From positions 1 to 55,018 of IMG/VR virus record IMGVR_UViG_3300006903_000014: DNA of 55,018 bases; one strand, given 5' to 3'. This document shows positions 25,566 through 55,018 of this stretch, one piece after another. Position 1 is the first letter of the stretch; every line of letters starts with the position of its first letter. A program made the translations under genes and the position numbers. The notes below the pieces were generated by a model that made no database searches, was not told where the DNA came from, and worked only from the letters and a program-made list of their open reading frames with translations. The DNA is from a virus. Taxonomy: Duplodnaviria; Caudoviricetes.

Positions 25566-26237
25566 GCCGAACGGATGGCCCAGGTTCGCGAATCGCTCGA
25601 GCGTGTCCCAGGCTCCGGGTCTCTCCGGCTGGGGATGGGGCCGCTCCGCCCTCCGATAGAGCAGGTTCGCCCACACGTCGCTGCGGACGAAGAACGCGTT
25701 GACGCCCCGGCTCTCGCAGTAGACCAGCGTGTAGCCCTTCCGCTGCGCCAGGCAGGCCAGGCCCATCAGCGATGCCCCGAAGTAGGCGTCGCCCGACCAG
25801 ACGAAATCGTTGTCCCTCGGGACGCTCGCGATCCACCCCGGTCCGAGCTGCGCGTTGTACTCGATCACGACGACCCGCGGGAGCAGGCGCATGGCCTCCC
25901 ATATCCACAGGTCCTGCCCGTCGACGTCGATCGAGACCAGGTCCGGCTGCGGGACCGTCGGCACGCCGAGCGCCTTGAAGATGGAGTTGACGTTGTCCGG
26001 GGTGATCCTGACCTTCACCACCCCGGCGGACGGGTCGCCGTCCCTGTCGATCCAGACGCCGCTCCAGCCCCGCTGCAGCAGCAGCCGCGTGTTGCACTCC
26101 TCGGCGCGCGGGCCGGTCCCGATCTCGACGTAGTAGCGCGAGCGCTCCCCGATCGCGCGGAAGATGGACTCGATCACGCCGTCCTCGCCGTTCTGGCTGA
26201 AGACCTTCGCCTCCGCGATCGGCAGGGCGGGCGTCAC
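25557..26237 (-). CDS. FkbM-like SAM-dependent methyltransferase
   Basis: FSQNGEDGVI, YVEIG, NT..L...GW.G..ID, DLVSIDVDG.D.WIW, PRVVVIEYN, GASL, GVNAFFVR. Confidence 0.85.
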   Translation of the reverse strand: MTPALPIAEAKVFSQNGEDGVIESIFRAIGERSRYYVEIGTGPRAEECNTRLLLQRGWSGVWIDRDGDPSAGVVKVRITPDNVNSIFKALGVPTVPQPDLVSIDVDGQDLWIWEAMRLLPRVVVIEYNAQLGPGWIASVPRDNDFVWSGDAYFGASLMGLACLAQRKGYTLVYCESRGVNAFFVRSDVWANLLYRRAERPHPQPERPGAWDTLERFANLGHPFGLK

Positions 26238-27052
26238 TCCGAGGCCATCCTGTTCATGACCTCGCTGACCCTGCGGCCCCAGCGACGCTCCCACGCGGGG
26301 AGCCCGACGTCGCGGACGAAGGCCAGTGCCTCGGCCGGCGCCATGTCCGGCTCCAGCGCCTTGTAGAACCAGCCCCGGCCCCCCATCGACGGTATCGCCC
26401 GGATGACCCGTCCGAGCATGATGCTCTCCGCCCAGCACCAGACTGGCTTGCGGCCCCAGCGGCGCGCGATCCGGCGGCGGAGCGGCATCACCTCCGACCA
26501 CCAGGTGGATTCGTTCGTGCCCTGCCAGACGTCCAGGAGGTAGTGGTCGAACTCGACGTCCGTGCGTAGCAGGAAGTCGTGGAGGTCGCCGCCGATGATC
26601 GAGACGCCGCCCGGGCGGCAGAGCTGAATGACGTCCGGCGACAGCTCGACCACCGTCACGGCCGCGACTCCGGGCAGGTCGCGCACCTTCGCGGCCAGGA
26701 TCCCGAGGCCAGGCCCGCCCACGAGCACCCGGCCGCTCGGCCGCACCTTCGCGAGCATCTCGTCGATCTGGCGCAGCTCGCGCGGCTCGTCCGTCATCCA
26801 GACCCGCTCGCCCCACGGGTGGAGCTGCACGAGCTGGTGGACCCGGACGGGCACGTCGTAGGTCACGTACTCGACCTTGCGCCGCGTGAGGAACGCCTCG
26901 CGCTGGTCGACGACGGCGACCGGCACGCCCGGGACGAACACGCGGTGCTTGATGGCGTGGATCCCCACGCGCCGCTCGGGCAGGTCCACCGGGGAGCCCG
27001 GCACCCTGGTCTCGCACGTCCCCTCGACCGGCTCGATGTACTGGTCGCTCAA
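26234..27052 (-). CDS. Spermidine-synthase-like class I SAM methyltransferase
   Basis: TTG 27052; WMTD.P.E, G.VLVGG.GLG, VTVVE...DVI, FD....DVW. Confidence 0.75.
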   Translation of the reverse strand: MSDQYIEPVEGTCETRVPGSPVDLPERRVGIHAIKHRVFVPGVPVAVVDQREAFLTRRKVEYVTYDVPVRVHQLVQLHPWGERVWMTDEPRELRQIDEMLAKVRPSGRVLVGGPGLGILAAKVRDLPGVAAVTVVELSPDVIQLCRPGGVSIIGGDLHDFLLRTDVEFDHYLLDVWQGTNESTWWSEVMPLRRRIARRWGRKPVWCWAESIMLGRVIRAIPSMGGRGWFYKALEPDMAPAEALAFVRDVGLPAWERRWGRRVSEVMNRMASE

Positions 27053-27066
27053 CCTTGCCCCCCTTC

Positions 27067-27568
27067 TCAGAATTCGGCGCCGGGGCGCTGCTTCGCCCGG
27101 CCCACGCCGCTCTCGTCCGACACCAGCCGCTGCTCGAAGCCGAACGGGAACCGCAGCCCCGGCTCGGCCAGGGGCGAACAGGTGATACTGGTTGGCGGAG
27201 TCGACGCGCCGGCTCTCCGCCGGGAACAGCTCCACGGCCTCGCGCTCCGCCGACAGGATGGCGTTCTTCACCCGCTGCAGCTCCCGCCAGTCTCGGATGG
27301 GCTCGCGATCGTTGCGCTTGATGGAGAGGTGGAGCAGGGCCGGCCAGTTCTGCGGCCCCGCGTTCCTGTAGAGCGCGACCGTGTACAGCTCGTTCTTCCA
27401 GACCTCGCCCGCGGCCAGGTGCCCCTTGACCCACGCGGCAAGCCGGTTCTCGTCCACGATCCCCAGCTCGGCGTAGAAGTCGGGCCGCGCGCGGAAGTCG
27501 CGCAGCGTCTCCGCCACGGCGCGCGCGACCTCGTCCGCTGGGTACTCCGCCCGCTCGAACGGGGTCAC
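27067..27568 (-). CDS. DUF7694-like protein, apparently frameshifted at 27171-27174
   Basis: HLSIKR.DR.PI.DWR.LQ.VKN...E.EAVELFPAESR.VD.ANQYHL; removing one C gives ...RFPFGF..RLV...* at 27067. Confidence 0.7.
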
Positions 27569-27708
27569 ACGCGCCCCCGCAGCGCCGCGATGAAGTTGGC
27601 GCAATAGCCGCAGGTACACCAGCGCTTCGGGATATAGGGCGCGTGCCCGAGTCGGCGCCAGTATGCCACGGGGCCGAGGCCGAGCGCCCGCTCCAGAACG
27701 GCCCTCAC
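27565..27708 (-). CDS. Small Cys-containing protein
   Basis: GTGA overlaps at both ends; CTCGYC. Confidence 0.45.
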   Translation of the reverse strand: MRAVLERALGLGPVAYWRRLGHAPYIPKRWCTCGYCANFIAALRGRV

Positions 27709-28441: not shown

Positions 28442-29404
28442 CTACTCCTCCAGCTCCATGAGGCGCGTGGGCCGATCCGTCACCATCGTCGCGAGCGCCG
28501 CCTTGATCTCGTCCATGCGCGCCCTCACGTGGTCGCGCAGGGCGCCCTCCTCGCGGAGCGTCTCGACGGTCACGCCCTCGAGCAGCTTGCGCAGGCGCTC
28601 GGAGACCTGCTCCAGCTCGGAGTCCCCCGTCACGTTCCGCAGCTTCACGGTGTCCAGGAACTCCCCCAGGTTGGAGACCAGCGTCGAGCGGAACACCTTC
28701 GGCTTGCCCGTCTTGCCGTCCACCTCGAGCCGATCGGCCATGTGGTCGACGAGGTCCTTCAGCTCCGCGCGCAGGAGCGCCTGGACCTGCTCGCCGACGG
28801 CGGCGATCGCGCGCTCTTGCTTCTCGACCTCGCGCTGGAAGATCGCGGCCGAGATGGCCTTTAGCTTCTTGGGCGTCGCGAACGTCAGCCATCGCGTGTC
28901 GAAGACGTAGGCCGCGCGGACCACGGCCGGCTTGGGATACTCGGCCTCGTCGAAGATGTCGCCGAGCTGCTCGCGGTCCGTCTCGATCAGCCCGCCCGGC
29001 GCCGCATAGGCGTCGATGAGCGCCGTCACCAGGGCGGTCCGCTCGACGTCGCGCTCTGCGAGGTAGTCGTCGACCTCCTCGACGCCCTCGAAGGCGACCA
29101 GGTATAGCCCGCCGCGGAAGAACGACGGCACCGAGTGCTCCACGACCCACTCGCGCGTACCGCCGTCGTGCTTCCGGATCGCGTCGACCAGCGGGTGGCG
29201 GAGGATGCGCTTCGTGACGCGGACCAGCTTCTTGTCCGCGTCGGTCTGCACCAGCTCGCTGTCGACCCGGCGCGAGGTGCCGTACCGCCCCAGCGTCAGG
29301 GACAGGCACAGCGTCCGTTCCATCACGCCGCCGAGGTCCTGCACGTTCTCGCCCGCCTGAGCCTGCGCCAGGCTGCCGCCCGGCATCGCCGTCGCGGTCG
29401 TCAT
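28442..29404 (-). CDS. DUF3150-like coiled-coil protein
   Basis: K.I....SVP..F..G.YLV...LG..F...EYP....V...Y.F...KVFR.TLV.N..EF....NV..D..L pattern. Confidence 0.65.
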   Translation of the reverse strand: MTTATAMPGGSLAQAQAGENVQDLGGVMERTLCLSLTLGRYGTSRRVDSELVQTDADKKLVRVTKRILRHPLVDAIRKHDGGTREWVVEHSVPSFFRGGLYLVAFEGVEEVDDYLAERDVERTALVTALIDAYAAPGGLIETDREQLGDIFDEAEYPKPAVVRAAYVFDTRWLTFATPKKLKAISAAIFQREVEKQERAIAAVGEQVQALLRAELKDLVDHMADRLEVDGKTGKPKVFRSTLVSNLGEFLDTVKLRNVTGDSELEQVSERLRKLLEGVTVETLREEGALRDHVRARMDEIKAALATMVTDRPTRLMELEE

Positions 29405-29670
29405 CGTCCACCTCCCAGGGGCTCCGGGATCCCGTGCCCCTCGATCCAGTCCCGCTCCGCCTTGAGCGCCGTCGACCGGCGCCCGAACGGCCCGACCGTC
29501 GGGCCGCCGACGGGCGCCAGGTCGGCGACCCACTGCCCGGAGTCGTCCGGCTCGACCGTCGACGCGCGGCGGATCAGCACGTCCCCCACCGCGCTCGCGA
29601 TCGGCGCGAGGTCGTCGTCGTGAACGAAGCGCAGGTCGCCGTTGGGGCCCACCACGATGAGCGCGCTCAC
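29401..29670 (-). CDS. Conserved small partner protein of the AAA operon
   Basis: GTGA overlap; IRRAS.VEPD..G.W.ADL.PV.GP..GPF..RS.AL.AE..W. Confidence 0.75.
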   Translation of the reverse strand: MSALIVVGPNGDLRFVHDDDLAPIASAVGDVLIRRASTVEPDDSGQWVADLAPVGGPTVGPFGRRSTALKAERDWIEGHGIPEPLGGGR

Positions 29671-29852
29671 CGCTGGCGCTCCCGCTCGCGCTCGCTGTAC
29701 TCCGGCGTGCGCCGGTTGCTCGCGACGTCGCCGAGCGCCTGCTCGAGGGCGCGCGTGGCCCGCTCGCACTCCGGGCCCGAGAACCCCCTCATGTCCCCGA
29801 TCTCGACCTCGCCCTCGGGCGAGACCGTCACGTTGAAGCTGCGGAGCGCCAT
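29667..29852 (-). CDS. DUF2997 family protein
   Basis: V.VSPEGEV.I...GF.G..C...T..LE.ALG......TPEY. Confidence 0.85.
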   Translation of the reverse strand: MALRSFNVTVSPEGEVEIGDMRGFSGPECERATRALEQALGDVASNRRTPEYSERERERQR

Positions 29853-29855
29853 CGC

Positions 29856-30353
29856 TCACCCCCTCCATCCGGAGGCGGCGACTCTGATCTGCACGGAGCC
29901 GTCCTCCTGGACCTTGACGCCCTCGACCCGGCCACCGCGCCGCTTGACCTCGGCCTTCACCTTCTCCACGGCGTACGCCTGGCAGAGCTGGGCGCCCGCC
30001 GTCTTGGGCAGGCGACCGACCATGTAGTAGTCCCACACCGGCACGAAGCCGCGCCCGCTCGGCGCCTTGCGGAGGCCGATCTCGTAGGTTGCCCCCGGGA
30101 CCCGGATCGCGTGCTCGCAGCCGCGGAGCAGCTTGGTCATCTCCTTGATTCGCTCGTGGTCGGCGAGCCCCTTCAGGCGCGCGACCTCTGCCGGCGTGAA
30201 CAGGTGCTCCGGGATGGCCGTGTCGCCCACCCACGAGCCGTACCAGTTGTACGTCTGCTGCCCCTCCAGGAACTCCCAGCCGAGCGTCTTGCAGGCCGCG
30301 CGCACGGCCGAGAGGTCGTCCATCCGCGTCTTCACCGTCACCACGTGGCTCAT
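29856..30353 (-). CDS. DUF1257 (Ycf35-like) protein
   Basis: MSHVVTVKT...DL..V..AC..LG...YEIG.....WDY...L.QAYAVE......G..V.......DGS..I.V. Confidence 0.85.
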   Translation of the reverse strand: MSHVVTVKTRMDDLSAVRAACKTLGWEFLEGQQTYNWYGSWVGDTAIPEHLFTPAEVARLKGLADHERIKEMTKLLRGCEHAIRVPGATYEIGLRKAPSGRGFVPVWDYYMVGRLPKTAGAQLCQAYAVEKVKAEVKRRGGRVEGVKVQEDGSVQIRVAASGWRG

Positions 30354-31868
30354 CTACTTCGCTCCTTGCATCTGCGAGAGGTCCCGGCCGCCCCGGAGCG
30401 CAGCCTCCGGTCGGTCCGCGCGATACGCGCCCTCATGCTGGGCGCTCAGGAAGCGCCCCTCCGCGAGCTGGCGCGCCTTCTTGATGGAGTCGGGGTCCGC
30501 CTTCGACACGGGCACGATCCGCCGCGACGCCTCGACCAGGCCGCAGTTCAGGCGATAGGCCAGCTCGCAGCAGTTGCGGATCTCGGCCCCCGTCCAGCCC
30601 GCGTCGTCGGGCAGCTCGGCGTCCTCGATCCCCCGGCGCTCGCGATGCAGCGCCCAGATCGCGGCGCGCTCCTCGGCCGACGGCAGGTCGAAGAACCAGA
30701 TGCCCATCCAGAACCGGCGACGCAGCTCGGGCGAGAGCGAGTCCAGGCGGTTCGCGGTCCCCACGACCAGGACGCGGTTGCGCCCCACGGCCTTGACGAC
30801 CTTCATCATGTCGCGGATGCCGCGCTCGCTCTGCCCCACGTACTCGCCCTTGGTCGCGCCGAGGTCCCCCGATAGGAGCGGCACGCGCATCGTCCCGGCC
30901 AGGCCGCGCGCGAAGTGGCTCTTGCCGGTGCCGGGCGGCCCATACAGGATGACGCCGCTCCAGCCGTTGTCCTCCATCTCCCGCAGGATCACGCCATGCT
31001 GGTCATCGGAGACGCCCGACGTGTCGCGCCCGTGCCCGGTCCCGCCGAGCATCTTCTCAATCTCATCCAGGTGGAAGACGGCCTCCGGCGGCACCGGGCC
31101 GGCGGCGAGCTGGCGCGCGAAGCCGCTGATGGACGGCAGGCCGCGCAGGTCGTCGAGGGAGTCGCGCCCATAGACCAGCTCGATCCCCCGCGTGTTGATC
31201 GCGACCCGCTTCCGGTCCCACAGCTCGTCGAGGCGCAGACCGCTCTTGCGCATGCTCATGGCGGCGATAGTCTCGGCCTCGAAGGCGGAGAGGCCGCGCA
31301 CGGCCGCCACCGCCGGCTCGAGCCCGCTCTTGGGCAGGTCCACCCCGCCGTCCTTGTACAGCGCCTTCAGGATGCCCGCCAGCGCCGCGTCATCCGGGAG
31401 CTGCTCGTCGAGTACCACGACGTCGTGGCGCAGCTCGCTCGGGAGCGGCATGTCGGGCCCCATCAGGACGAGCATCCGGCCGTCGGCCTTGTACCTGTTC
31501 CGCAGGTTCGCCACCGCCTGCGCCACGATCGGGTCGGCGATGTGCCGGTGCGCGTTCCACATCAGGAGCAGGCTGCGCCGCGGGAACTTGTCGGCGAGCT
31601 GGAGCGCGACGTCCGGCTGCCGGCTCTGAGAGGCCAGCTCGTCCGGCGGCATGTCGAGCCCCGCCACGGCTGCCGCCCCGGCGTCGTTCAGCGCGACCAG
31701 GCCGCGGCAGGCATCCCACTGCACCTTGGGGCTCTCGGACGGGATCGCGCTGCAGATGCGGTCGACCAGGGCGTGCTGGTCCGGCGTCATCAACCCGACC
31801 ACCGGCGTCGAGACGTTGCGCGCCGAGACCAGGGTGTCGACGATGTCCTTCTCCGCGCGGCCCGTCAT
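30354..31868 (-). CDS. Ycf46-like AAA+ ATPase with permuted Walker B/Walker A order
   Basis: Degenerate N-terminal AAA-like domain; FHLDEIEK (31079-53), GPPGTGKS (30941-18), YVGQSE, VGTAN, PELRRRF, FFDLP, WTGAEI. Confidence 0.9.
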   Translation of the reverse strand: MTGRAEKDIVDTLVSARNVSTPVVGLMTPDQHALVDRICSAIPSESPKVQWDACRGLVALNDAGAAAVAGLDMPPDELASQSRQPDVALQLADKFPRRSLLLMWNAHRHIADPIVAQAVANLRNRYKADGRMLVLMGPDMPLPSELRHDVVVLDEQLPDDAALAGILKALYKDGGVDLPKSGLEPAVAAVRGLSAFEAETIAAMSMRKSGLRLDELWDRKRVAINTRGIELVYGRDSLDDLRGLPSISGFARQLAAGPVPPEAVFHLDEIEKMLGGTGHGRDTSGVSDDQHGVILREMEDNGWSGVILYGPPGTGKSHFARGLAGTMRVPLLSGDLGATKGEYVGQSERGIRDMMKVVKAVGRNRVLVVGTANRLDSLSPELRRRFWMGIWFFDLPSAEERAAIWALHRERRGIEDAELPDDAGWTGAEIRNCCELAYRLNCGLVEASRRIVPVSKADPDSIKKARQLAEGRFLSAQHEGAYRADRPEAALRGGRDLSQMQGAK

Positions 31869-32143
31869 CGCCGCCCCCGCATCATCGGCGCGAGCCGGAA
31901 CCGGGGGTCGGCGTCCAGCTTCCGCTCCATGAACGCCATCGCCTCCTCGAGCGCCTCGACCCGGCGCCGGCACGCCTCGCACGAGCAGCCCAGCGAGTAG
32001 CGCCCGCAGCCGGGCAGCGCGTTGACTCGGCCCATCAGCTCGTCCTGCCTGGCGTCGCCGGAGCAGGCCGGGAGAACGGCGGGGGTCCGCCCCATCGTCT
32101 CTCCGCCCTCGGCCGGGTTGGGTCCGTCCGCCCGGGCCGTCAC
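31865..32143 (-). CDS. Small Cys-containing protein
   Basis: Y..GC.C..C motif; coupled. Confidence 0.55.
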   Translation of the reverse strand: MTARADGPNPAEGGETMGRTPAVLPACSGDARQDELMGRVNALPGCGRYSLGCSCEACRRRVEALEEAMAFMERKLDADPRFRLAPMMRGRR

Positions 32144-32355
32144 AGCGCCTCCGTGTAGACCAGCTCCCGGCTGTCGGCGTCGTACACCAGGCCGCGAGCG
32201 TCCGTCTGCCCGCGAAGCCAGGCGCTCTCCAGCGCGGCCGCCGCGCGCTCGATCGTGCGGAACTTCGAGCCCCCGCGCCGCGGCACAACGCGGAGCCGCC
32301 GCCCATCTGCTTCCAGGATCGCCACGAACCGCCCGTCCTGCCCCAGGTCCTTCAT
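32140..32355 (-). CDS. Hypothetical protein (first gene after the second early promoter)
   Basis: GGGAGG RBS. Confidence 0.65.
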   Translation of the reverse strand: MKDLGQDGRFVAILEADGRRLRVVPRRGGSKFRTIERAAAALESAWLRGQTDARGLVYDADSRELVYTEAL

Positions 32356-33530: not shown

Positions 33531-33709
33531 GACGTCTTCTCCGTCAGCTTCTCGACCGACTCCGGCCTGGAGCAGCGGTCGACGGCCCAGCCCCGCTTCT
33601 TCCAGTCCGGCCCGTGACGCTCATCCATCTGAGCGAGCGCCGCCTCGTCCGTGTCGACCTCGAAGACGTAGATCGGTTCTCCCCGGAATGACGCGACGAA
33701 GTGCCTCAC
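33527..33709 (-). CDS. Hypothetical protein
   Basis: GTGA overlap. Confidence 0.5.
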   Translation of the reverse strand: MRHFVASFRGEPIYVFEVDTDEAALAQMDERHGPDWKKRGWAVDRCSRPESVEKLTEKTS

Positions 33710-34584
33710 TCGCAGACCGGGAGGGATCCGCCCAGCCCGCCCCCGCAGCCGAGGATGGCCTCCAGCGCCGTCTCGTAGCGCGCCCCCAGCAGGTCCTGCG
33801 AGGCGTGGTCGAAGTGCAGGTTGTCGCCCTTGTCCGTGAGCCCCAGCGAGTCGACGAAGGCGCGCGAGAAGTCCTTCGTCATCGCCTGGCGCGTCTGGTT
33901 CACCACGGCGGCCCTGGCGGGGTACGCCGTCGGGTCCAGGAAGCGCCCCAGCTCGCCAGCGATGAACGGCAGGCCCGCCGCCGGCAGATGCGGGGACCTC
34001 GAGAGCTGGCTGGGGCCTTCGGCCAATGGCAGTACCTCCTGGCGCATCTGGAGTACGACCGCCTCCAGCGCCGCCTGGTATCCCTGCGCGGCCGCCGTGC
34101 TCTTCGCGTTGGACTCGCCCTGGTGCCAGAGCACCGCCATGATCTCGACTCCAAGCGCCTGCGCCTCGTGGATCATCACGCGGCAGACGTCGTATGCGTC
34201 CCGGTTCGCCTTCCAGTCCGAGACGAGGGACCCGGACACGGCGCACTGCACGATCCACAGTTCCGGCGTCAGGGGGTGGGCGGCGAGGTACGCCTCCGCG
34301 AACGCGCGGCCGAACCCGTAGCCGGCGCCTCCGATCGGCTCGGCGGAGTCTCGCGGGCGGCCGTCGCGGCGGATCGCCTGGACCGCGGCCAGGGGAGTGG
34401 TATCGCCGGCCTCGAGCGCCGCCTGCCCCAGGGCGTTGCTCTGCCCCATGATCACGACGGCGCGCGCGCCAGGCAGCGGGACCGGCCCGGCGGCGGCCGC
34501 GGCCGCCCCGGAGAGGACCGCCAGGAGAGACAGAGCGAGCGGGGCCGCTCCGGCCCCGCGGGTCTTGTGCTGTTGTCCGTTCAT
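33706..34584 (-). CDS. Secreted SGNH hydrolase, sialate O-acetylesterase (SASA/CE6-like)
   Basis: AAGGAAGGA RBS; signal peptide; GQSN, WHQGESN and DNLHF (DxxH) catalytic blocks. Confidence 0.88.
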   Translation of the reverse strand: MNGQQHKTRGAGAAPLALSLLAVLSGAAAAAAGPVPLPGARAVVIMGQSNALGQAALEAGDTTPLAAVQAIRRDGRPRDSAEPIGGAGYGFGRAFAEAYLAAHPLTPELWIVQCAVSGSLVSDWKANRDAYDVCRVMIHEAQALGVEIMAVLWHQGESNAKSTAAAQGYQAALEAVVLQMRQEVLPLAEGPSQLSRSPHLPAAGLPFIAGELGRFLDPTAYPARAAVVNQTRQAMTKDFSRAFVDSLGLTDKGDNLHFDHASQDLLGARYETALEAILGCGGGLGGSLPVCE

Positions 34585-34646
34585 CGTATGTCCTTCCTTT
34601 CCTGCCGCGATCGGAGGGGCCCGCGGCGTTGCCCCGTTGGTTGAGC

Positions 34647-34889
34647 CTAGTCCTCGTCGCGGCGTCCGCCGCGCTCGACGATCTCGGCCTGCAGTTCCGC
34701 GATGCGCGCCAGGCGCTCGTGGGTCGGCCCGTAGTCGGAGACCTCGTTCTCGAGCCCGCCCAGCTCGAAGCACTGCGTGCAGAGGCGGAGATGGACGCTG
34801 TCGCCGTGGCCGTCGTCCCGGGTCTTGCGGCCGCAGGCGCCGCAGGCGTAGCAGCCGGAACCGTGGGAGAACGTCGTGGTGCGCCTCAT
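34647..34889 (-). CDS. Conserved small Zn-finger phage protein
   Basis: F..GSG.Y.C..CGR.TR....D.....LC..CFEL.G.EN..SD. Confidence 0.7.
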   Translation of the reverse strand: MRRTTTFSHGSGCYACGACGRKTRDDGHGDSVHLRLCTQCFELGGLENEVSDYGPTHERLARIAELQAEIVERGGRRDED

Positions 34890-41926: not shown

Positions 41927-44900
41927 CTAGCCTCCCCAATCCCCGACGGCGTTGTTATGCACGCGCCACTTGCGGTTCTTGGTGTTCTTCAGGAGCACGC
42001 GGCCGACGGCCTCGCCGTCGAGGGTGATCGTGGCGTCCTGGTCCCCGCCCGGCCCCGCCGGGGCACTGGCGCCCATCATCGCCGCTAGCTGGGCGCCGAG
42101 TGCGGACCCGAGTCCGGCGCCGATCGAGCGGGCGAGCGCGTCGGCCGGCCCGACCAGCTCCGGGTTGGACGGGCTGCCGTGCAGGACCCAGTTGCCCACA
42201 GAGGTCGCCACGCCACCGAACGCCGCGCCCTGCTGGTTGCGCTCCCCCGGGCCGCCGGGCGTGTTCGACCCGCCGGGGCCGCCCCCGGGCCCGTTGTTCG
42301 GCACGTTGTAGCCCTGCGCGGCCTGGTTCGCCGCGTTGGTCGCGTTCGTGACCGAGCGCCACTGCGAGGCGATGTCGGCAACGACGTCCAGGGACCCGGC
42401 GAGCGGCCCGTTGGGGTCGGTGACCAGGTCGGAGAACCCCTGATAGACGTCGATCGTGTCGGAGGTCGCCTTCGTCGCGAACACCGACATCTCGTCGATG
42501 CCGGCGTTGATCTCGCTGGTCCAGTATTCCCCCTGGGAGACCAGCGCCTCGGCCATGTTGCTCCCGTCCACCGCGATGTCCTGGAACGCGGAGCCCGTCG
42601 AGGCCGAGACGTCGCCCGCGAACGTCTGCCACGCCTGCGAGCTGGCGCTGCTGGCGGCGAAGGCGGCGCCCGTGGCCGCCGCACTCCCGGACTGCAGCGA
42701 CTGGATGGCGGCCTGGCTCGCCGTGGCGGCCGCCTGCGTGCCCTGCGCGGCGGCGTTCGCGCTCGCCTGCGCCGCGGCCTGCGCGGCTCCGGCCGCGGCG
42801 CCGGCCGCCGCCTCGCCCGCCGCCGCCGCCCCCTGCGCCGCCTGGCTCATGCTGCTGTTCATCCCGTTCGCCGCGTTCTGCGCGGCCGGCGGGATGGCGC
42901 CCATCGCGGTCGCGATCGAGGTCAGGAGGGACACCACCTGCTGCAGTGGATCCGTCGGGAAGGCGACGCCGGCCGCCTTCGCCTGGTCGATCAGCGCCTG
43001 CGTGTTGGAGTCGAGCTGCATCCCATACTGCTGCGCGACCTGCTGCGCCTGCGCGAGCAGCGGCGCGATGGCCTGCAGCGCGGTCTGGCTGTCCACGCCC
43101 TGGTCGGTGAGCTGCTTCATCGCCGACGCGGCCTGCTCCTCGAAGCCCTGGAATGCGCCCTGGGTCATGTACCCCGAGTCGGCGAGCCCGCCCAGCGCGT
43201 CCTGGAGCCCCTGGATGCCCTCGGTGATGTTCTTCGTGGCCTCGTTGCCGATCAGCCCCATGATCTGTTCGATGGGGCCCATCACGGCCGAGGCGTCGAA
43301 GCCGCCCTTCTTGAGCGAGTCCTGGATCGCGTCGAAGGCGGGCTTCATCGCCGTCGCCGCGTTGATCAGCCCGTCCTCCTTGACCTTCGCCCAGAAGGTG
43401 GCGCCGAAAATCTGCGCCTGCGCCTGCGCGTCCTCGGGGGTGATGATCTGGATCCCCTTGACCGCGCCGGCCGTTCCGGATACCGCCTTGTCCAGCCCCG
43501 CCTTCACAGCGGCCGCGATCTCCGGGACGTGCTCGCCCATCGCGCGAGCCTCCTGGATCATCTGGACGCCCAGCCGGCGCGCCGCCTCCGCCGCGGCCCC
43601 CGTCGAGGACTCGGCCTGGTGCTGGACCTGCGCGAACGCCTTGCCGATCTCGGCCACGCCCTCCGCCGCCGGGATCGAGCCCGAGGCGACGCCCTTCATC
43701 AGATCGCCGATCTGGGAGGTGAAGGCCTCGACGCCCATCCCGCTCTCGGTGATCGCCTGCGTCAGGTTGAGCAGGCTCGCGCTCTTGACGTCGATGTGGA
43801 GGTGGTCGGCCGTCTGCTGGATCGCCTGCTGCAGGCTCTCGGAGATGGTCGTGCCGAGCTGCTGTCCGATGGCCTGCGCCTGCTGCTCCGCCTTCGAGGG
43901 TCCCCCGAACAGGTGGCCGATGAGGCTGATTCCGGCGAGGATCCCGTGGACGGCCCCGGCGATGATCTGCACCGGGTTGTGGGAGGCGAGCCCCTCGACG
44001 ACGTCGCTGGCCGCCTTGCCCATGTTCTGCAGGTCACCGAGCGCCTGCGCGAAGGAGGAGTCCGCGGCGACGCCGAAGGCCGCCGCCACCTCGCTGGCGA
44101 TCCCGATCAGGTCCGAGATTCCCTTGAACGCGTGGGCGATCCGCTTCAGGTGCTCCTCGTGCTCCTTTTCCTGCTCGAGCAGCCGCTCATCCTCCTGCCG
44201 CGCGATCTCCTCGGCGACGCGCCGGCTCGCCCAGAGGCCGTTACCCATCTGGACGCCGGTGTTCATCCGCTCCTGCGCCTCCTGAGCCTTGAGGATCACC
44301 TGGTAGAAGTCGTCGGCGCTGTCGTCGAGCGGCGTGCCGTTCAGCTCCTGATAAAGCGCGCGGATCTCCTGCAGCTTGGGCGGGACCTTCTCGAGCCCGC
44401 CCTTCACCAGCGCCTCGATCTTCTTGTTGGCCTCCTCGAGCAGCACCGGGTTCTCGCGCAGGATCGCCGTCGTGTGCTCGTCGCCCAGGGCGGCCGCCAG
44501 CTTCGCCGCCTTCTCCTCCAGGTCCTGGCCCGTGAGCTGCCGGCGCAGCTCCTCGACCTCCTGCGCCCACTTCGACAGGTCACCGGCCGAGCCCTTCGCG
44601 TGCTCGCCGACGTGCTCCAGCTCGAGGCTCGCCCCGGCGATCTTCTCCTTGGCGCCCTGGAGCGTGGAGTTGACCTTCTCGAGGCTCTCGTGGAACTTCG
44701 AGTTGGCGGCGATCGTGTCGTTGGCGCTCGCCTTCATCCCGACCAGGGCGCTGTTCACGTAGTCGAGCCCCGTCTTGGTGGAGGCGATCGTCTTGCTGAG
44801 ATCGTTGCCGAACAGCTTCGAGACGAGCCCGCCGCCGGGAATCGAGGCCGCCAACTCGGCCAGCTTCAGGTTCGCCGTGAGGATGGCCTGCGCGAAGAGA

Positions 44901-45859
44901 AGGACGCCCGCCATCGCCGCGTCGAAGCCGATGCGCAGGAAGTCGAGCACGTCCCGCGCCGCGCCGACGCCGCTCACCAGGAGCTGGATGCCAGAGACGG
45001 CGAGAACGATCCCCTGCGTGGTCCAGGCGGCGATCTGCGCCCGATTGTCGATGAACCAGTGGGAGAGCTGACCCATCAGGTTCGTCAGGATCTCGATGGC
45101 CGCGTGGAGCCCTCCGCTCGAGGCGACTCCGGCCGCAAAGTTGTTCCAGACGCCCTGTCCGGTATCCTTCAGCAGCTTGAACTCGTTGTTGAGCTTGGCG
45201 CCAGCCGCCACGGCCTTCTCGTCGATGATGATCCCCAGCTCCCGAGCCCTCGCGATCACGGCCGCGATGTTGCTGGAGAACAAGGGAAGCATCTCCGTCC
45301 CGGTCTTGCCCAGCGTCTTGAAGGCGGCGATCCCGCGCAGCGTCGGGTTCTCGATGCTGGCGATCTTCTCGCCCAACTTCAGGAAGGCATCGGCGGGATT
45401 CTGCGCGATCAGCGCGCGCGTCTCGAGGCCGAGCGCCCGGAACGCCTCCGGGGTCTCCCCCAGCTTCTTCTTCATCTTGTCGATCGCGCCCGTGATCGAG
45501 TCCAGGGATGTGTCCGTCGGCCGTCCGGCGGCGGCCAGCTCCTGCAGCATCGTCGTGTTGGTGCCGATCTTGGTCCCGAGGATCTCGAGCTTGTCGCTCA
45601 TCTCCGCGAAGTGCTCGACGCTCTCCACCGCCAGCTTGGGGACCTCGAGCAGGGTCTCCTTGAATTTCTCCATGGCCTCGTGGGCCAGCTCGATCCCCGC
45701 GCCGATCCCGATCCCCTCCTTGAAGGCCTCGCTCATCCCGTGGGCGGCGTGGGACGCCTCCTGGGTGGCGTGGGCGATCTGGGAGAGCTGGAACGACACG
45801 TCCTGCAGGACTCCGCCGCCGGCCTGGCTGATCACGAGGCGGACGGAGACGTCCGCCAC
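41927..45859 (-). CDS. Tail tape measure protein
   Basis: 1310 aa, Ala/Gln-rich helical, TM-like stretches; follows the frameshifted chaperone. Confidence 0.92.
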   Translation of the reverse strand: MADVSVRLVISQAGGGVLQDVSFQLSQIAHATQEASHAAHGMSEAFKEGIGIGAGIELAHEAMEKFKETLLEVPKLAVESVEHFAEMSDKLEILGTKIGTNTTMLQELAAAGRPTDTSLDSITGAIDKMKKKLGETPEAFRALGLETRALIAQNPADAFLKLGEKIASIENPTLRGIAAFKTLGKTGTEMLPLFSSNIAAVIARARELGIIIDEKAVAAGAKLNNEFKLLKDTGQGVWNNFAAGVASSGGLHAAIEILTNLMGQLSHWFIDNRAQIAAWTTQGIVLAVSGIQLLVSGVGAARDVLDFLRIGFDAAMAGVLLFAQAILTANLKLAELAASIPGGGLVSKLFGNDLSKTIASTKTGLDYVNSALVGMKASANDTIAANSKFHESLEKVNSTLQGAKEKIAGASLELEHVGEHAKGSAGDLSKWAQEVEELRRQLTGQDLEEKAAKLAAALGDEHTTAILRENPVLLEEANKKIEALVKGGLEKVPPKLQEIRALYQELNGTPLDDSADDFYQVILKAQEAQERMNTGVQMGNGLWASRRVAEEIARQEDERLLEQEKEHEEHLKRIAHAFKGISDLIGIASEVAAAFGVAADSSFAQALGDLQNMGKAASDVVEGLASHNPVQIIAGAVHGILAGISLIGHLFGGPSKAEQQAQAIGQQLGTTISESLQQAIQQTADHLHIDVKSASLLNLTQAITESGMGVEAFTSQIGDLMKGVASGSIPAAEGVAEIGKAFAQVQHQAESSTGAAAEAARRLGVQMIQEARAMGEHVPEIAAAVKAGLDKAVSGTAGAVKGIQIITPEDAQAQAQIFGATFWAKVKEDGLINAATAMKPAFDAIQDSLKKGGFDASAVMGPIEQIMGLIGNEATKNITEGIQGLQDALGGLADSGYMTQGAFQGFEEQAASAMKQLTDQGVDSQTALQAIAPLLAQAQQVAQQYGMQLDSNTQALIDQAKAAGVAFPTDPLQQVVSLLTSIATAMGAIPPAAQNAANGMNSSMSQAAQGAAAAGEAAAGAAAGAAQAAAQASANAAAQGTQAAATASQAAIQSLQSGSAAATGAAFAASSASSQAWQTFAGDVSASTGSAFQDIAVDGSNMAEALVSQGEYWTSEINAGIDEMSVFATKATSDTIDVYQGFSDLVTDPNGPLAGSLDVVADIASQWRSVTNATNAANQAAQGYNVPNNGPGGGPGGSNTPGGPGERNQQGAAFGGVATSVGNWVLHGSPSNPELVGPADALARSIGAGLGSALGAQLAAMMGASAPAGPGGDQDATITLDGEAVGRVLLKNTKNRKWRVHNNAVGDWGG

Positions 45860-46870: not shown

Positions 46871-47938
46871 CTAGGCCAGCGCGTCCGTGCTCTTCTGGTT
46901 GACCATCTCCATGGTGACGGCCTCCTGGTAGGTGGCCGGGAAGCCCGTCGGCACGGCCGTCCTGCGGTGCGCCTCGAAGGACAGGTTGACCGGGATGCGG
47001 CCCGGCCCGCCCACGTTCGCGTCCCCGCCGCTGAACTGCACGTCCGGGAAGTACAGCGTGATGGAGAAGTTGGTCGTGCCGTTCGCGATCGGCCCGGTGA
47101 AGGTGACGGTCATCTTCTTGCGGGCCTTCGAGAGCATGGCGGAGAGCAGCGCGTCGTTGCCGCCGGTCCCGTCGAAGTACTTCGAGAAGGCGATCTTGCC
47201 CGTGACCATGGTGAAGCCGTCCTGGATGGGCTCGTCGATCAGGTAGCCGTAACGGGTGGTGACGTCGTCCGTCGGGTAGCTGTTGTCCAGCGAGACCTCG
47301 AACTCCGAGAGGTAGACCAGGTCCGCGTTGGCGAGCGCGCCACCGTCGTGGGCGTTGATCTTGACCACCATCTGGGAGAACAGGGCGAAGTCCCGGTTGG
47401 AGGGCATCGTGATGTTGGCGACGGTGGCGTTGGTGTTCGTGCCGGCGCCCGTGTTGATGTTGAGCCCCTGCGGGATCATGGGGAACTTCGCGCGCAGGCG
47501 CGTCCCGTTCTTGATGCTCAGGTTGAAGCCGCCGACCTTCGCGGTCGTATACTCCCAGACGCCGACCTGCTTGTTGAAGACCAGCGTCCCGTGCAGCCCC
47601 TCCTTGTCGTCGTTGATCTTGAAGACGTGCTTGTACGCGTTGTCGCTCGCGACCTGCGAGGGCGCGCCGGCCGTCCCCATCGCCATCGCGAAGAACCGTT
47701 CGATCCCCTCGTAGCGCACATCCATCTCGACGTCGCCCGAGTGGAACTCGTTGCCCTTGTCCCCGAACAGCTTCGACGCTCGCCCGGTGAGCGAGACGTC
47801 GGGGATGAACTGCGAGTCGGGCGTGAGCCCCTCGGTGACGTACTCGAATCCGTCGTTGGCCCCGGCCGCGACGGGCGTGCCCCACGTCGTCGACTTCTTG
47901 AACCCACCGATCGCGCGGAAGCCCTTGCCGTAAGCCAT
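46871..47938 (-). CDS. Major tail tube protein
   Basis: TWGTPV, G.V..D.RYEG..RF, F.VSLDN, NVGGPG.I.V.L.F; no sheath gene seen. Confidence 0.85.
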   Translation of the reverse strand: MAYGKGFRAIGGFKKSTTWGTPVAAGANDGFEYVTEGLTPDSQFIPDVSLTGRASKLFGDKGNEFHSGDVEMDVRYEGIERFFAMAMGTAGAPSQVASDNAYKHVFKINDDKEGLHGTLVFNKQVGVWEYTTAKVGGFNLSIKNGTRLRAKFPMIPQGLNINTGAGTNTNATVANITMPSNRDFALFSQMVVKINAHDGGALANADLVYLSEFEVSLDNSYPTDDVTTRYGYLIDEPIQDGFTMVTGKIAFSKYFDGTGGNDALLSAMLSKARKKMTVTFTGPIANGTTNFSITLYFPDVQFSGGDANVGGPGRIPVNLSFEAHRRTAVPTGFPATYQEAVTMEMVNQKSTDALA

Positions 47939-48172: not shown

Positions 48173-48840
48173 GGCGTCCTCCCTCGGAGAGCGAACGGGT
48201 AGTTGTCGGGACCCCAGGCGAACGGGGGCCCCAGCTCCGCGAGAGCGTCGCCCTCCGCGACCGTCTCGAGGCCGCCGGCTTCGAAGTGCGCGCGCCAGGC
48301 CGCCGGGTCCATGCAGAGGTAATGATTGCGCGGACCGGCCGAAATGCCAAGCCGGAAGTGGGGCGGCGTGGACGGCACCGTCGCCAGGATCATGTGCCGC
48401 GCGACCCGCCCCAGCTCGGCGAGCACGCGCGGCTGGAGCTCAAGGGGCAGGTGCTCCACGATGTCGAGCGCCACGACGACCTCGAAGGCGCCGTCCACGA
48501 ACGGCAGCGCGCAGGCGTCGGCGACAGCGCCGGCCCGCGTCCGGAAGTCCTCCCCGAGGTCCACCCCGACGGCGCGCAGCCCCCGGTCCCTCAGCTCCTC
48601 GACCAGGATCCCCCGGCCGCAGCCGAGGTCCAGCACGCGCCAGTCCGGCGGCAGGTCCTGGCCCCGGAGCAGCAGCTTGCGCAGCGCCAGGCAGACGCCG
48701 ACGGCGCTCCTGCGCCAGCGGTCCCTGTTGTCCCAGTGGCCGGGGCCGCCGTAGCCGCTCTCGAATCCTACGTCCTCGCCGAGGTTGTAGCGGGGGCCGT
48801 ACCTGGTGCGCAGGTCGGCCCTCAGCTCCTCGGGGGTCAA
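48169..48840 (-). CDS. Class I SAM-dependent methyltransferase
   Basis: TTGA overlap; VLDLGCGRG, GVD, DACALPF.DG.F.VV...D.VEHL. Confidence 0.88.
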   Translation of the reverse strand: MTPEELRADLRTRYGPRYNLGEDVGFESGYGGPGHWDNRDRWRRSAVGVCLALRKLLLRGQDLPPDWRVLDLGCGRGILVEELRDRGLRAVGVDLGEDFRTRAGAVADACALPFVDGAFEVVVALDIVEHLPLELQPRVLAELGRVARHMILATVPSTPPHFRLGISAGPRNHYLCMDPAAWRAHFEAGGLETVAEGDALAELGPPFAWGPDNYPFALRGRTP

Positions 48841-50009
48841 TTGGGCTGCCCCGCCGGCCCACCAGGCGCCTCGCTGGCGTGAGCGCCGGCCGGATGCCAG
48901 GGATGGATGCCCGCGGGGCCGTTCTGCGCGTCCCTGGGGGCGCCCAGCGCCTCGGTGGGCTCGGCGCCCGGGAATGTTCCACGTGGAACGTCCTGCCCGG
49001 CGGCCGCCTCGATCGCCCGGAGCAGCCCCTCCGCCGAGGCGCCCCAGGTCATCGAGCGGGCCCGGTGGACGCCCATGAGCCGGCGTGCCTCCAGGTCCGG
49101 GGAGCCGAACCCGGCCCGCGCGGTCCGCAGGCTGTCGGCCAGGTCGGCGATGCTGGCGACCTCGAGCCGGTAGGCCGCGTCCCCGTATCGGATCGAGACG
49201 ACGTCCCGCGTCGGCACGACGATCCCGTGGGAGTCGTCGAGGAAGTCCGCGTGGCCGCCGGTCAGCGGCGAGACGACCAGGCACCCCGCTGCCATCGCCT
49301 CGAGCGCCGGCAGGCCGAAGCCCTCGCCGTAGGACGTCGAGACGAACACGTCCGCCGAGGCGTAGAGCGCCAGCATGTCCGCCGGCTCCAGGTCGCGCCC
49401 GTCCACGAGCACGTGGTCCTGGCCGTTCATCCCCCGCACGATCCTGTCGGCCGGGTCCGTGGCGATGGTCTTCACGTAGAGCTGGGGCGGGTCCACCGCG
49501 CCCTCGAAGGCGCGCGCCCACGCCGGCGCCAGCCGGTCCCAGCCCTTGCGCTCGATCGGCGAGCCGACCCACAGGAATCGTCGCCTCGGCCCCGTCCCGG
49601 CCGCCATCGCGATGGTGCGCCGCGAGTAGTCTGTCGAGAGGAAGGACTCATGCACGCCGAGCGGGACCACCTGCGCCTCGAGCCCGTGCGCGCGCCAGAC
49701 CTCGGCGCAGTACGTCGACGGGACCACGAGGCGATCCGCCCTCGAGATCGGGTCGAGCAGGGCAGGGGGTATGACCGGCGCCTCCCACATAGTGAACAGC
49801 ACGTTGATCTTGCCCGGGACGGGCGCGAACCAGTGGGGCGGACAGAAGTGAAGGTGCGCCCTCGGGTCCGACCCCGCGGCGCCCGCGTCCCTCAGCGCCG
49901 GCCCCACGCGGCGCCTGAGCGCGTCGTAGAGATTGAAGGCGGCCGAGAGGTAGCCGCGGGCGATCCCGAGCCCTGCCGGGAAGCGGTAGTGGCGCCACGC
50001 CAGCTTCAC
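48837..50009 (-). CDS. GT-B glycosyltransferase (GT4-like)
   Basis: TMWE, VVPS, RKG.D, ADVFV..S.GEGFGLP.LEAMA.G. Confidence 0.92.
   Translation of the reverse strand: MKLAWRHYRFPAGLGIARGYLSAAFNLYDALRRRVGPALRDAGAAGSDPRAHLHFCPPHWFAPVPGKINVLFTMWEAPVIPPALLDPISRADRLVVPSTYCAEVWRAHGLEAQVVPLGVHESFLSTDYSRRTIAMAAGTGPRRRFLWVGSPIERKGWDRLAPAWARAFEGAVDPPQLYVKTIATDPADRIVRGMNGQDHVLVDGRDLEPADMLALYASADVFVSTSYGEGFGLPALEAMAAGCLVVSPLTGGHADFLDDSHGIVVPTRDVVSIRYGDAAYRLEVASIADLADSLRTARAGFGSPDLEARRLMGVHRARSMTWGASAEGLLRAIEAAAGQDVPRGTFPGAEPTEALGAPRDAQNGPAGIHPWHPAGAHASEAPGGPAGQPN
48975..48990. other. parS: Chromosomal-type parS palindrome
   Basis: TGTTCCACGTGGAACG, 15/16 to TGTTCCACGTGGAACA; perfect 14-bp palindrome 48976-48989. 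Confidence 0.7.
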
Positions 50010-53803: not shown

Positions 53804-54967
53804 CTACGGCCTCGACGCCAGCAGGACGAACGGCGACAGGGTGTTCGTGCCGTTCTTCGGCGTGAGCGGCGCATTCCAGACCGGCTGACCGTCGATCCGG
53901 TACAGGAAGCGGAACACCTGCTCGTCGTTCAGGAAGCGGACGTGCATCGACACGGCGCTCTGGATCGCGCCCTTGTCGATGGTCAGGTACTGCGAGAGGT
54001 CCACGAGCTGAATGTCGCCCACGGTGCCGACCGTCGAGCAGTACTCCACGGGGATCACGGGCCGCCCGAACAGCGTGGCGTACGGCTGTCCGGAGACGCC
54101 CCCCGCGGGCAGGTAGACCGGCACGCCGCCGGTCCCGATCTTGAGCACCATCTGGTAGAGCTGGGGCTCGCAGTCCTGGTTGATGAGCCACACGGCGTTC
54201 TGCCGCGAGCGCGCCCACATGCGCGACCACATCTTGAGCACGTTCTCGAAGACGATCGTGCCCGTGGGCTGGCCCGACTCGGCCGACACCGTGACCACCG
54301 CGCCGCTGTTCAGGTAGCCGAGCGGCTGACCGGCGCCGCTGCCGTTGACGATCGCGTCCTCGCACCGGAACATCAGCTCCTCGGGCAGCGCCTCGTTGAC
54401 GATGCTCTCGAGGGCGGCCGCGTCGGCGAGCACCTCGTCGGTGCCGTAGACGAGACCGGTGATCTTGTGCAGCTGCAGCTCCATCTGGCGGAACTTCGGC
54501 TGGGAGGCGGTGAACGCCGCGGCCTCCGCCGTCCAGTAGGACAGCACGCCGCCCCAACGGGAACCGTCCACGCGCGAGGTCTCGTCGATGGCGTTGATCT
54601 TCAGGCCGTTCGAGCCCCCGCTGATGGGGACCCGGCGGACCCGGCTCATGATCTGGCCGGTCTCATACGTCTTCCGCAGGATCTCCGCGCTGAAGTCCTT
54701 GGTGACGAGGAACCCGCCGTCGGCCTGGATCAGCTCACCGAGCCCGGTCGCGGCCGCGCGCTTCGGGTCCGGGGCCTGCCAGACCAGCCGCGGGTCGACG
54801 TGCTGGTTGGGCATCGTCGCCCCGGCGACCGCCTGCAGGAACTCTCCGAAGCTGGAGAACCCGCCCTTGCCGTCTCCCGCCCCGGCCGCGAGCGCGGCCC
54901 TCTGGGACGCCGTGTGATCCGCCGGGCCGCGCGTCGGCTCGACGGTGCGCTCCAGCTCGAGCTGGAG
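53804..54967 (-). CDS. Major capsid protein, HK97 fold (N-terminus truncated)
   Basis: F.SFGEFL, DGGFLV, IDETSR, W.AE, K....Y.TDE.L.D, G.G.GQPLG, LFGRPV, F..DE..FRF..R.DGQP. Confidence 0.95.
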   Translation of the reverse strand, partial: LQLELERTVEPTRGPADHTASQRAALAAGAGDGKGGFSSFGEFLQAVAGATMPNQHVDPRLVWQAPDPKRAAATGLGELIQADGGFLVTKDFSAEILRKTYETGQIMSRVRRVPISGGSNGLKINAIDETSRVDGSRWGGVLSYWTAEAAAFTASQPKFRQMELQLHKITGLVYGTDEVLADAAALESIVNEALPEELMFRCEDAIVNGSGAGQPLGYLNSGAVVTVSAESGQPTGTIVFENVLKMWSRMWARSRQNAVWLINQDCEPQLYQMVLKIGTGGVPVYLPAGGVSGQPYATLFGRPVIPVEYCSTVGTVGDIQLVDLSQYLTIDKGAIQSAVSMHVRFLNDEQVFRFLYRIDGQPVWNAPLTPKNGTNTLSPFVLLASRP

Positions 54968-55018
54968 CGCACCGTCGAGCCGACGCGCGGCCCGGCGGAT
55001 CACACGGCGTCCCAGAGG
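54899..55018. repeat. Perfect 120-bp terminal palindrome (fold-back)
   Basis: 54959-55018 is the exact reverse complement of 54899-54958, centred on CCAGCTC|GAGCTGG. Confidence 0.95.

Follow-up and report, generated by a model that had tools for sequence, protein, structure and literature searches.

An AAA+ ATPase family of tailed phages with Walker B ahead of Walker A, probably a non-circular permutation of the motor core

Can the core of an AAA+ ATPase be connected in another chain order and still work? This question was raised by a gene on the window analyzed here, which is the whole of a linear metagenomic virus record of 55,018 bases (IMG/VR record IMGVR_UViG_3300006903_000014; approximately 75% complete, G+C content of 70.7%). 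The coding sequence at 30354..31868 on the minus strand, comprising 504 codons and a stop codon at 30354-30356 with a likely start ATG at 31868, encodes a permuted AAA+ ATPase in which the Walker B motif stands before the Walker A motif. To our knowledge, AAA+ proteins are all taken to follow one succession of motifs, namely Walker A, Walker B, sensor 1 and arginine finger, and the family profiles presuppose it. The present analysis addressed whether the altered order is real, how it arose, and what it would mean for the fold and activity of the enzyme.

The translation of the open reading frame (ORF) contained, in a single frame of the minus strand, DDLRGL (residues 238-243), the Walker B sequence VFHLDEIEK (residues 264-272; VFHLDE at 31062-31079), DTSGVS...ILREMED (residues about 282-299), the segment GVILYGPPGTGKS (residues 305-317) including Walker A GPPGTGKS (residues 310-317, 30918-30941), YVGQSE at the position of pore loop 1 (residues 343-348, 30825-30842), sensor 1 VLVVGTAN (residues 366-373, 30750-30773), and PELRRRF with the arginine pair (residues 380-386, 30711-30731). 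The order Walker B, Walker A, sensor 1 and PELRRRF, which a first-pass annotation had read from the DNA, was thus confirmed, with all motifs lying within 30700-31180. The same annotation had named a second Walker B behind Walker A as an observation that would refute its reading. None was found, as just the four residues GRNR separate the end of alpha2 from VLVVGTAN, and in the profile alignment the Walker B block of canonical relatives lands in a gap of the swapped protein at 362/363. Walker B is located approximately 45 residues before Walker A in this protein, and 56-59 residues after it in the canonical relatives.

Along the chain, residues 236-260 (31089..31163, minus strand, as are all the following parts of the protein) form a 'D-x-R/G-G-L' turn, the helix alpha0 (245-256) and a new linker of 12 residues, as delimited by AlphaFold2 and the alignments; G243 in the turn was invariant in an alignment of 119 rows. 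The next segment is the moved block B (residues 261-303, 30960..31088), composed of the strand VFHLD, the Walker B residues D268/E269, a Gly/Ser-rich loop and the helix alpha3. Block A (residues 304-363, 30780..30959) follows with beta1, Walker A, alpha1, beta2, the pore-loop-1 position and alpha2, and residues 364-394 (30687..30779) provide beta4 with sensor 1, alpha4 with the arginine pair, and beta5 (strands 366-372 and 390-392). The protein thus possesses the features of classical AAA+ ATPases, namely Walker A of the form GxxxxGK[ST], Walker B of the form hhhhDE on a predicted strand, sensor 1 and arginine finger(s), but not their chain order beta1-alpha1-beta2-alpha2-beta3-alpha3-beta4. 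Joining of the old termini together with the opening of new ones inside the domain, as in a circular permutation, was not seen. The alignments and profile comparison by hhalign were collinear before alpha0 and from beta4 onward, which bore out the earlier view that two internal blocks, beta3-alpha3 (about 43 residues) and beta1-alpha1-beta2-alpha2 (about 60 residues), were exchanged with the termini unchanged.

As the record is metagenome-derived, linear and incomplete, and only one sequencing run, probably its source, contains the stretch, the order could in principle reflect a local misassembly, a chimera or a gene-calling artefact. The Logan assembly of this run matched the stretch over 1601 identical bases with no differences and no joints at a depth of about 12; it was built from the same reads and is not independent. 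Further evidence came from homologues. A word-indexed protein search detected 494 proteins at E <= 1e-5, the best 120 of which were full-length with 40-52% identity, and an exhaustive search of representatives detected 1059 clusters at E <= 1e-30, probably including some canonical relatives, with the best 150 all full length; the identities of these best 120 of 494 and best 150 of 1059 matches were about 37-50%. The Walker B-first order was present in every row of alignments with 16 and 119 rows. For a set of 333 unique sequences, three intein-bearing proteins longer than 620 residues were left out, as were P0001, which was a duplicate, and three phage proteins in canonical order; 81 proteins from individual loci were added. 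All 333 aligned sequences, derived from many separate assemblies, had the same order, so that the search for homologues with Walker B before Walker A, suggested in the first-pass annotation, yielded a large family. The order was also found in gp103 of Tunturi_3, a cultured Tunturiibacter phage with a complete genome (38% identity), and at 18 of the 80 loci taken from genomes and metagenome-assembled genomes (MAGs) of bacteria, among them Acidobacteriota, Nitrospirales, Planctomycetota, Armatimonadota, Myxococcales and others. The misassembly that the annotation had listed as a second way to be refuted was not found, the family-wide order and the separate assembly of the probable source run being in agreement, and we regard an artefact as having a negligible chance of accounting for the order.

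The conservation pattern suggested that the rearranged protein has been kept as a working enzyme. In the alignment columns, E269, K316, N373 and R385 were each present in 333 of 333 sequences, position 268 was Asp or Glu in all 333, and R384 was found in 325. The columns were used because regular-expression scans missed motif variants (12 of 121 sequences in one scan and 50 of 333 in another), and a third scan gave spurious extra Walker A matches. Even so, the scan of the 333 sequences placed Walker B ahead of the pore loop in 283 and behind it in none, with the pattern unmatched in 50. The loops at the new junctions were likewise constant in length, with 12 residues between alpha0 and the moved strand in 311 of 333, 8 residues between alpha3 and beta1 in 326, and 11 residues at the third junction in 291. 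The family also includes three proteins of 836-896 residues (P0082, P0259 and P0255) interrupted by inteins, seen as large insertions starting at Cys. Two of the insertions split the P-loop behind GPPG/GVPG, and the third follows 'ATC' in sensor 1; P0082 carries the Pfam intein/homing-endonuclease domain PF05203, and the canonical relative P0269 carries PF14890. Inteins at these sites fit a strong functional constraint on the P-loop and sensor 1. The earlier suggestion that the intact motifs belong to a functional enzyme is therefore favored at the sequence level by the four invariant residues, the maintained junction lengths and the positions of the inteins.

The origin of the block in front of Walker A was examined by comparison with relatives in canonical order, Walker A, pore loop, Walker B and sensor 1. 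Such relatives were gp026 of Pseudomonas phage SM1, gp60 of Rhodobacter phage RcTiptonus, Javan368_0002 of a Streptococcus satellite, and the proteins of 62 of the 80 bacterial genome and MAG loci. The closest were encoded at 16 loci (L103-L115, L121, L129 and L138), mostly of Planctomycetota MAGs, with 28-31% identity to the window protein, and they scored 241-379 bits on a hidden Markov model (HMM) of the swapped family compared with 156-263 bits on an HMM of the SM1 type. L103-L110, L114 and L121 come from Planctomycetota MAGs and one isolate, and L102, which diverges most among the swapped members seen, likewise belongs to a Planctomycetaceae MAG. The canonical relatives share with the window protein an N-terminal AAA-like module, alpha0, the Walker A block, sensor 1, the arginine pair, a lid motif of the WTGAEI type, and a C-terminal VPV...R.WA.GR..SA tail. 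When profiles of the 333 swapped and 118 canonical sequences were compared by hhalign, the first match was collinear (probability 100%, E 1.4e-40, query 9-484 versus 20-550) and skipped one block on each side. The second match was off-diagonal and aligned residues 261-305 with canonical residues 366-410, the Walker B block (probability 97%, E 9e-11), which indicates that the moved block is homologous and not a chance match. According to two alignments of swapped with canonical proteins, the breakpoints are clean and lie in loops just ahead of strands. The order alpha0, beta1-alpha1-beta2-alpha2, beta3-alpha3, beta4 of the canonical proteins is thus alpha0, beta3-alpha3, beta1-alpha1-beta2-alpha2, beta4 in the swapped family. 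We regard it as practically certain that the chain order is as read and is conserved, and that the moved block is homologous to the canonical one.

Whether the relocated unit still forms part of the sheet was addressed by structure prediction. The AlphaFold2 model of the window protein, calculated with the 119-row alignment, had a predicted local distance difference test score (pLDDT) of 93.8 and a predicted template modeling score (pTM) of 0.89; the Gly/Ser loop region 271-290 showed pLDDT of 68-84. The model of a canonical relative, L108 (pLDDT 87.0), contained the same elements in canonical order. In the swapped chain, alpha0 (residues 245-256; 234-245 in L108) was followed by the Walker B strand (263-267; 315-319) and alpha3 (286-301; 339-353), then by beta1 (304-309; 256-261), alpha1 (316-327; 267-278), beta2 (331-334; 282-285) and alpha2 (346-362; 295-311), and finally by beta4 (366-372; 358-364) and beta5 (390-392; 382-386). 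The element lengths were similar in the two models.

Mean-field coupling analysis was performed on the 333 sequences (effective number of sequences, Meff, of 269) over residues 225-470, and the top 82 pairs were considered. Four pairs linked the moved strand to the sensor-1 strand (365-373) with a constant offset of 101-103, as expected for a parallel register. Two pairs linked beta1 to beta4 (offset 63), two linked beta1 to beta5, and seven linked alpha3 to alpha2, while none of the top 82 pairs joined the moved strand to beta1 or beta5. This pattern fits the canonical 5-1-4-3 arrangement.

The swapped model and the canonical control model were also superposed on the same PDB chains with a sequential structure aligner (VIA-align). 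On 3cf0_A (p97 D2), the swapped model gave Z 16.7, root-mean-square deviation (rmsd) 2.4 and 203 aligned residues (model 226-473), and the control gave 24.1, 2.8 and 249, respectively. The corresponding values were 16.9, 3.4 and 212 against 23.5, 2.8 and 251 on 6bmf_B (Vps4), 16.2, 2.8 and 205 against 23.1, 2.7 and 249 on 6p07_B (spastin), and 18.7, 4.8 and 397 against 25.4, 4.2 and 443 on 7lmz_C (p97/Cdc48 D1-D2). Over seven chains, including 6g2v, 4d82_B and 8vls_A, the swapped model lost 33-46 residues relative to the control, which equals about one block, and its remainder superposed about as well as the control. The alignments to 3cf0_A and 6bmf_B showed an alpha/beta core with a C-terminal helical lid of the AAA+ fold. 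Foldseek against PDB matched whole chains only, those of Rix7, Cdc48 and p97, and the rmsd was high. Prediction of a complex of three copies of residues 226-504 with ATP scored 0.01, which has no bearing either way on ring formation. The rewired sheet connectivity proposed in the first-pass annotation is thus supported, on the level of models, by the element order in AlphaFold2, by the residue pairs that couple the moved strand with that of sensor 1, and by the deficit in aligned length, with the spatial placement of the strand deduced from them.

These data also bear on the alternative that the protein is a pseudo-ATPase, in which DEIEK would be a mere extension of alpha0 or of the linker, beta3 would have been lost, and ATP would be bound but not hydrolyzed. 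MAFFT can indeed set the 'W-x-D/x-E' of the canonical alpha0 region under 'HLDEIEK', and sequence searches of Pfam and PDB detected just two halves of the domain, one with Walker A and one with sensor 1. Pfam AAA (PF00004) covered residues 307-360, equivalent to profile positions 1-54, with 58.5 bits over a cut-off of 21.2; the phmmer matches in PDB covered residues 305-365, and the sensor-1 and arginine-pair regions were aligned by phmmer to a VCP-like ATPase. The detection of only two half-domains by profile tools accounts for the absence of Walker B from the annotation of the swapped family. Against a loss of beta3 stand the profile-profile match that makes residues 261-305 homologous to Walker B and alpha3 of the canonical proteins, the invariance of E269 and the conservation of D/E268, the predicted strand 263-267 with the long helix behind it as in the canonical control, and the parallel-register couplings that tie this strand to the sensor-1 strand. 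Moreover, a core without beta3 would have a gap in its sheet. A pseudo-ATPase was accordingly judged quite improbable.

Judged from its sequence, the window protein is a genuine and probably active classical-type AAA+ ATPase of a large family of tailed phages and prophages. We propose that the common ancestor of the family underwent a transposition of a single beta-alpha unit, beta3 with Walker B and alpha3 (about 43 residues), from behind beta1-alpha1-beta2-alpha2 to the site between alpha0 and beta1. The resulting chain runs alpha0, beta3-alpha3, beta1-alpha1-beta2-alpha2, beta4-alpha4-beta5 and lid, with the termini untouched, which makes it a non-circular permutation. The three-dimensional fold would most likely keep the canonical 5-1-4-3-2 sheet, in which case D268/E269 would still lie beside the P-loop lysine K316. 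Just three loops would need to be rewired, each new connection spanning one or two strands more without a change of direction, so that the right-handed crossovers and the helix positions could stay; the reach and direction of these connections follow from the general topology of AAA+ proteins. As in other AAA+ proteins, K316/S317 would hold ATP-Mg, E269 would activate water, N373 would sense the gamma-phosphate, and R384/R385 would act on the site of the neighboring subunit in a ring. We consider this explanation as a whole, including the canonical three-dimensional arrangement and the activity, very likely to be correct.

A different way to complete the active site would be complementation between subunits, in which the moved block inserts into a ring neighbor by three-dimensional domain swapping and each site is built from two chains. 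The linker of 12 residues between alpha0 and the strand and the flexible Gly/Ser loop (271-290) could permit such excursions, and couplings do not separate contacts within a chain from those between chains. The short link of 8 residues from alpha3 to beta1, present in 326 of 333 sequences, holds the block close to its own P-loop strand, and the monomer model is confident overall (pTM of 0.89). The intra-chain solution is also simple, as its connections reach only one or two strands further. Active sites shared between two chains therefore appear highly improbable.

The number of times that the transposition took place was estimated from trees constructed from columns filled in most rows, which removed both copies of the moved block. 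Swapped and canonical sequences were separated by a single branch with one change in both a 53-row tree (Shimodaira-Hasegawa-like approximate likelihood ratio test, SH-aLRT, of 100) and a 70-row tree (SH-aLRT of 99), and with midpoint rooting of the latter the swapped clade was nested within the closest canonical group. On these sequence data, the swap apparently had a single origin. We know of no other AAA+ protein that departs from the canonical order, which makes canonical to swapped the parsimonious direction of change. For the route, we conjecture that both blocks were duplicated internally and that the outer copies were then lost.

The genes downstream of the ATPase gave further information on its role. 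A DUF1257 protein of 165 residues is encoded at 29856..30353 on the minus strand (Pfam PF06868, E 7.5e-05, 23.3 bits compared with a cut-off of 22.2), and its ATG directly abuts the stop codon of the ATPase gene (TAGATG), suggesting coupled translation. It is followed on the same strand by a DUF2997 protein of 61 residues (29667..29852; Pfam PF11211, E 2.7e-12) and by a fourth gene of about 321 residues (28442..29407) with no Pfam match at E 0.01. The nearest Atlas cluster of the latter, with a score of 0.98, has PF11348 in 18% of its members; as a lead only, the protein is possibly DUF3150-like. Among 80 viral loci, same-strand neighbors were DUF1257 in 70, DUF2997 in 70 and the fourth gene in 75. 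At the 16 closest canonical loci, the counts were 15, 15 and 9, respectively; phage SM1, with a canonical ATPase, has DUF1257 and DUF2997, and RcTiptonus, also canonical, has DUF2997. The presence of the module at canonical loci indicates that it is older than the swap. The swapped enzyme and its canonical relatives most likely share one function, which we infer to be ATP-driven remodeling of a phage or host target by a ring of subunits. Open-access literature on DUF1257, DUF2997, DUF3150 and Ycf46 with phage contained nothing useful on function.

Several points weigh against the proposed explanation or limit its reach. The position of the moved strand in the beta3 slot is drawn from the AlphaFold2 model, the couplings and the aligner, of which the first two use the same alignment information and are not mutually independent. 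The deficit in aligned length means that one block is unalignable in order and does not give the site of that block in space. No coupling between the moved strand and beta2 was present in the top 150 pairs, and one beta4-beta5 pair, at rank 8, does not fit simple adjacency. ATP hydrolysis and ring formation are attributed to the swapped ATPase by analogy. Furthermore, Y343, the pore-loop-1 aromatic of the window protein, lacks conservation in the family, where the consensus reads S/L-x-V-G; this makes a threading mechanism uncertain. For the partner proteins Pfam, PHROGs and NCBIfam gave DUF names or nothing. The rows of the trees were random subsamples of the hit lists of two queries and the root was placed at the midpoint only; the nearest canonical row in the 70-row tree, L121, has a very long branch with 80% support. 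A duplication intermediate with a second Walker B between alpha2 and beta4 was not found among the 333 sequences, in which the longest link at this place was 13 residues, and the evolutionary route is conjectural for lack of a member with an extra block.

The remaining parts of the protein are shared with the canonical relatives. The N-terminal module (residues 1-225, 31194..31868, minus strand) is predicted to be an AAA-like alpha/beta domain with a lid but no P-loop, a degenerate 'D1'; it showed a beta-alpha-beta pattern in the AlphaFold2 model and was collinear with canonical relatives in hhalign. Neither Walker A nor Walker B was detected in this module in the 119-row alignment, and Pfam AAA matched only from residue 307 on. 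Despite the two-tier fold match, the two nucleotide-binding AAA modules of tandem type II proteins such as p97/Cdc48 were thus not found. Swapped and canonical relatives alike retain the module and, as modeled, the protein would resemble p97 in having two tiers, of which the upper is dead. Residues 395-504 (30357..30686, minus strand) comprise the helical lid (WTGAEIRNCC) and the conserved C-terminal tail (IVPV...GRFLSA), and this region is common to the swapped family and the canonical relatives. The protein start is supported by the N-termini of homologues, which align with the ATG at 31868 in both the 16-row and 119-row alignments, and the gene call P0002 (504 residues) in the protein collection is identical to the ORF of the window, with the match to its own record at 30357-31868. 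The open frame extends 146 codons upstream (31869-32306, minus strand), and this extension overlaps a separate ORF of 71 codons (32140-32355) with high third-position G+C. The long form of the ATPase is probably not translated.

Nearly all likely genes of the window lie on the minus strand, and those for a tape measure protein of 1310 residues (weak match, 41927-45859), for a minor tail protein and a glycosyltransferase (46871-47938 and 48837-50009, in this order), and for a major head protein at the edge of the window (53804-55003), all on the minus strand, confirmed its origin from a tailed phage. Other minus-strand genes encode a protein of 355 residues with a SASA carbohydrate esterase (sialate O-acetylesterase-like) domain (33706-34773, E 8e-29), which may be a receptor-modifying or tail-associated enzyme, a DUF7694 joined to a methyltransferase-like part (26234-27619), and a protein with a ParB-like nuclease/partition domain, for which the best PHROG carries the label DNA methyltransferase (4616-5719).

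As to novelty, no description of an AAA+ protein with a Walker B-first order was found in open-access full text, covering papers and preprints, and in the passages covered of the candidate papers the word 'permuted' was applied to methylases only. The best PHROGs family is labeled 'unknown function', NCBIfam has no specific model, and the source names of the relatives are 'hypothetical protein', 'ATPase' and 'AAA family ATPase'. It is on balance likely that the permutation has not been described before. An earlier report, such as in a broad comparison of AAA+ or phage proteins, would be conceivable for a family of this size, which others may have met, and the literature covered was open-access; given the absence of a description there and the generic labels in the databases, we think such a report unlikely. 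We incline to the view that this is the first natural non-circular permutation of the AAA+ core, that is, of an additional strand catalytic E (ASCE) P-loop core, in which the Walker B unit moved once and the enzyme kept working. A well-studied motor fold then appears to tolerate a rewired chain order, and, if this is true, neither folding nor catalysis in the AAA+ fold strictly requires its core strands to emerge from the ribosome in the usual succession. The swapped family and its canonical sisters in the same module would provide a natural matched pair for rewiring of the motor fold, a natural experiment to tell which chain links within the P-loop core are important to folding, to the assembly of rings and to the coupling of subunits, and a concrete case of an internal non-circular permutation that arose once and persisted. 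The family also points to a widespread uncharacterized four-gene phage module of ATPase, DUF1257, DUF2997 and a DUF3150-like protein.

Among the known systems, the nearest in structure are the classical AAA+ proteins p97/VCP, Cdc48, Vps4, spastin and Rix7. The whole window protein matches the D1-D2 fold (7lmz_C) and its C-terminal module matches p97 D2 (3cf0_A); in sequence, the classical AAA+ proteins with solved structures match at Walker A/pore loop and at sensor 1/arginine fingers. Unlike in p97, Cdc48, Vps4, spastin and Rix7, the core units of the window protein stand in another chain order, and, unlike in p97, its N-terminal module has no P-loop and there is no p97-type N-domain. In gene context, the window ATPase adjoins DUF1257 and DUF2997 genes, and in architecture it combines an N-domain with one active AAA module, as do ATPases of the Ycf46 type, which are associated with Ycf35 (DUF1257) and DUF2997; the window ATPase may belong to this type. 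No Ycf46-specific model was among the Pfam and NCBIfam results for the protein, and Ycf46 itself has the canonical motif order. Altered chain orders are familiar from circularly permuted GTPases such as the YjeQ/RsgA class, which differ from the window ATPase in that their permutations are circular and their fold is another. In Bordetella phage BPP-1, the HK97 fold of the capsid is reported to be permuted in a non-circular manner (PMC3863775). The BPP-1 case and the window ATPase are alike in being non-circular permutations from phages and differ in fold. In the permuted GTPases and in BPP-1, the key elements keep their three-dimensional positions despite the altered chain order, as would be the case for the Walker B unit of the window ATPase.

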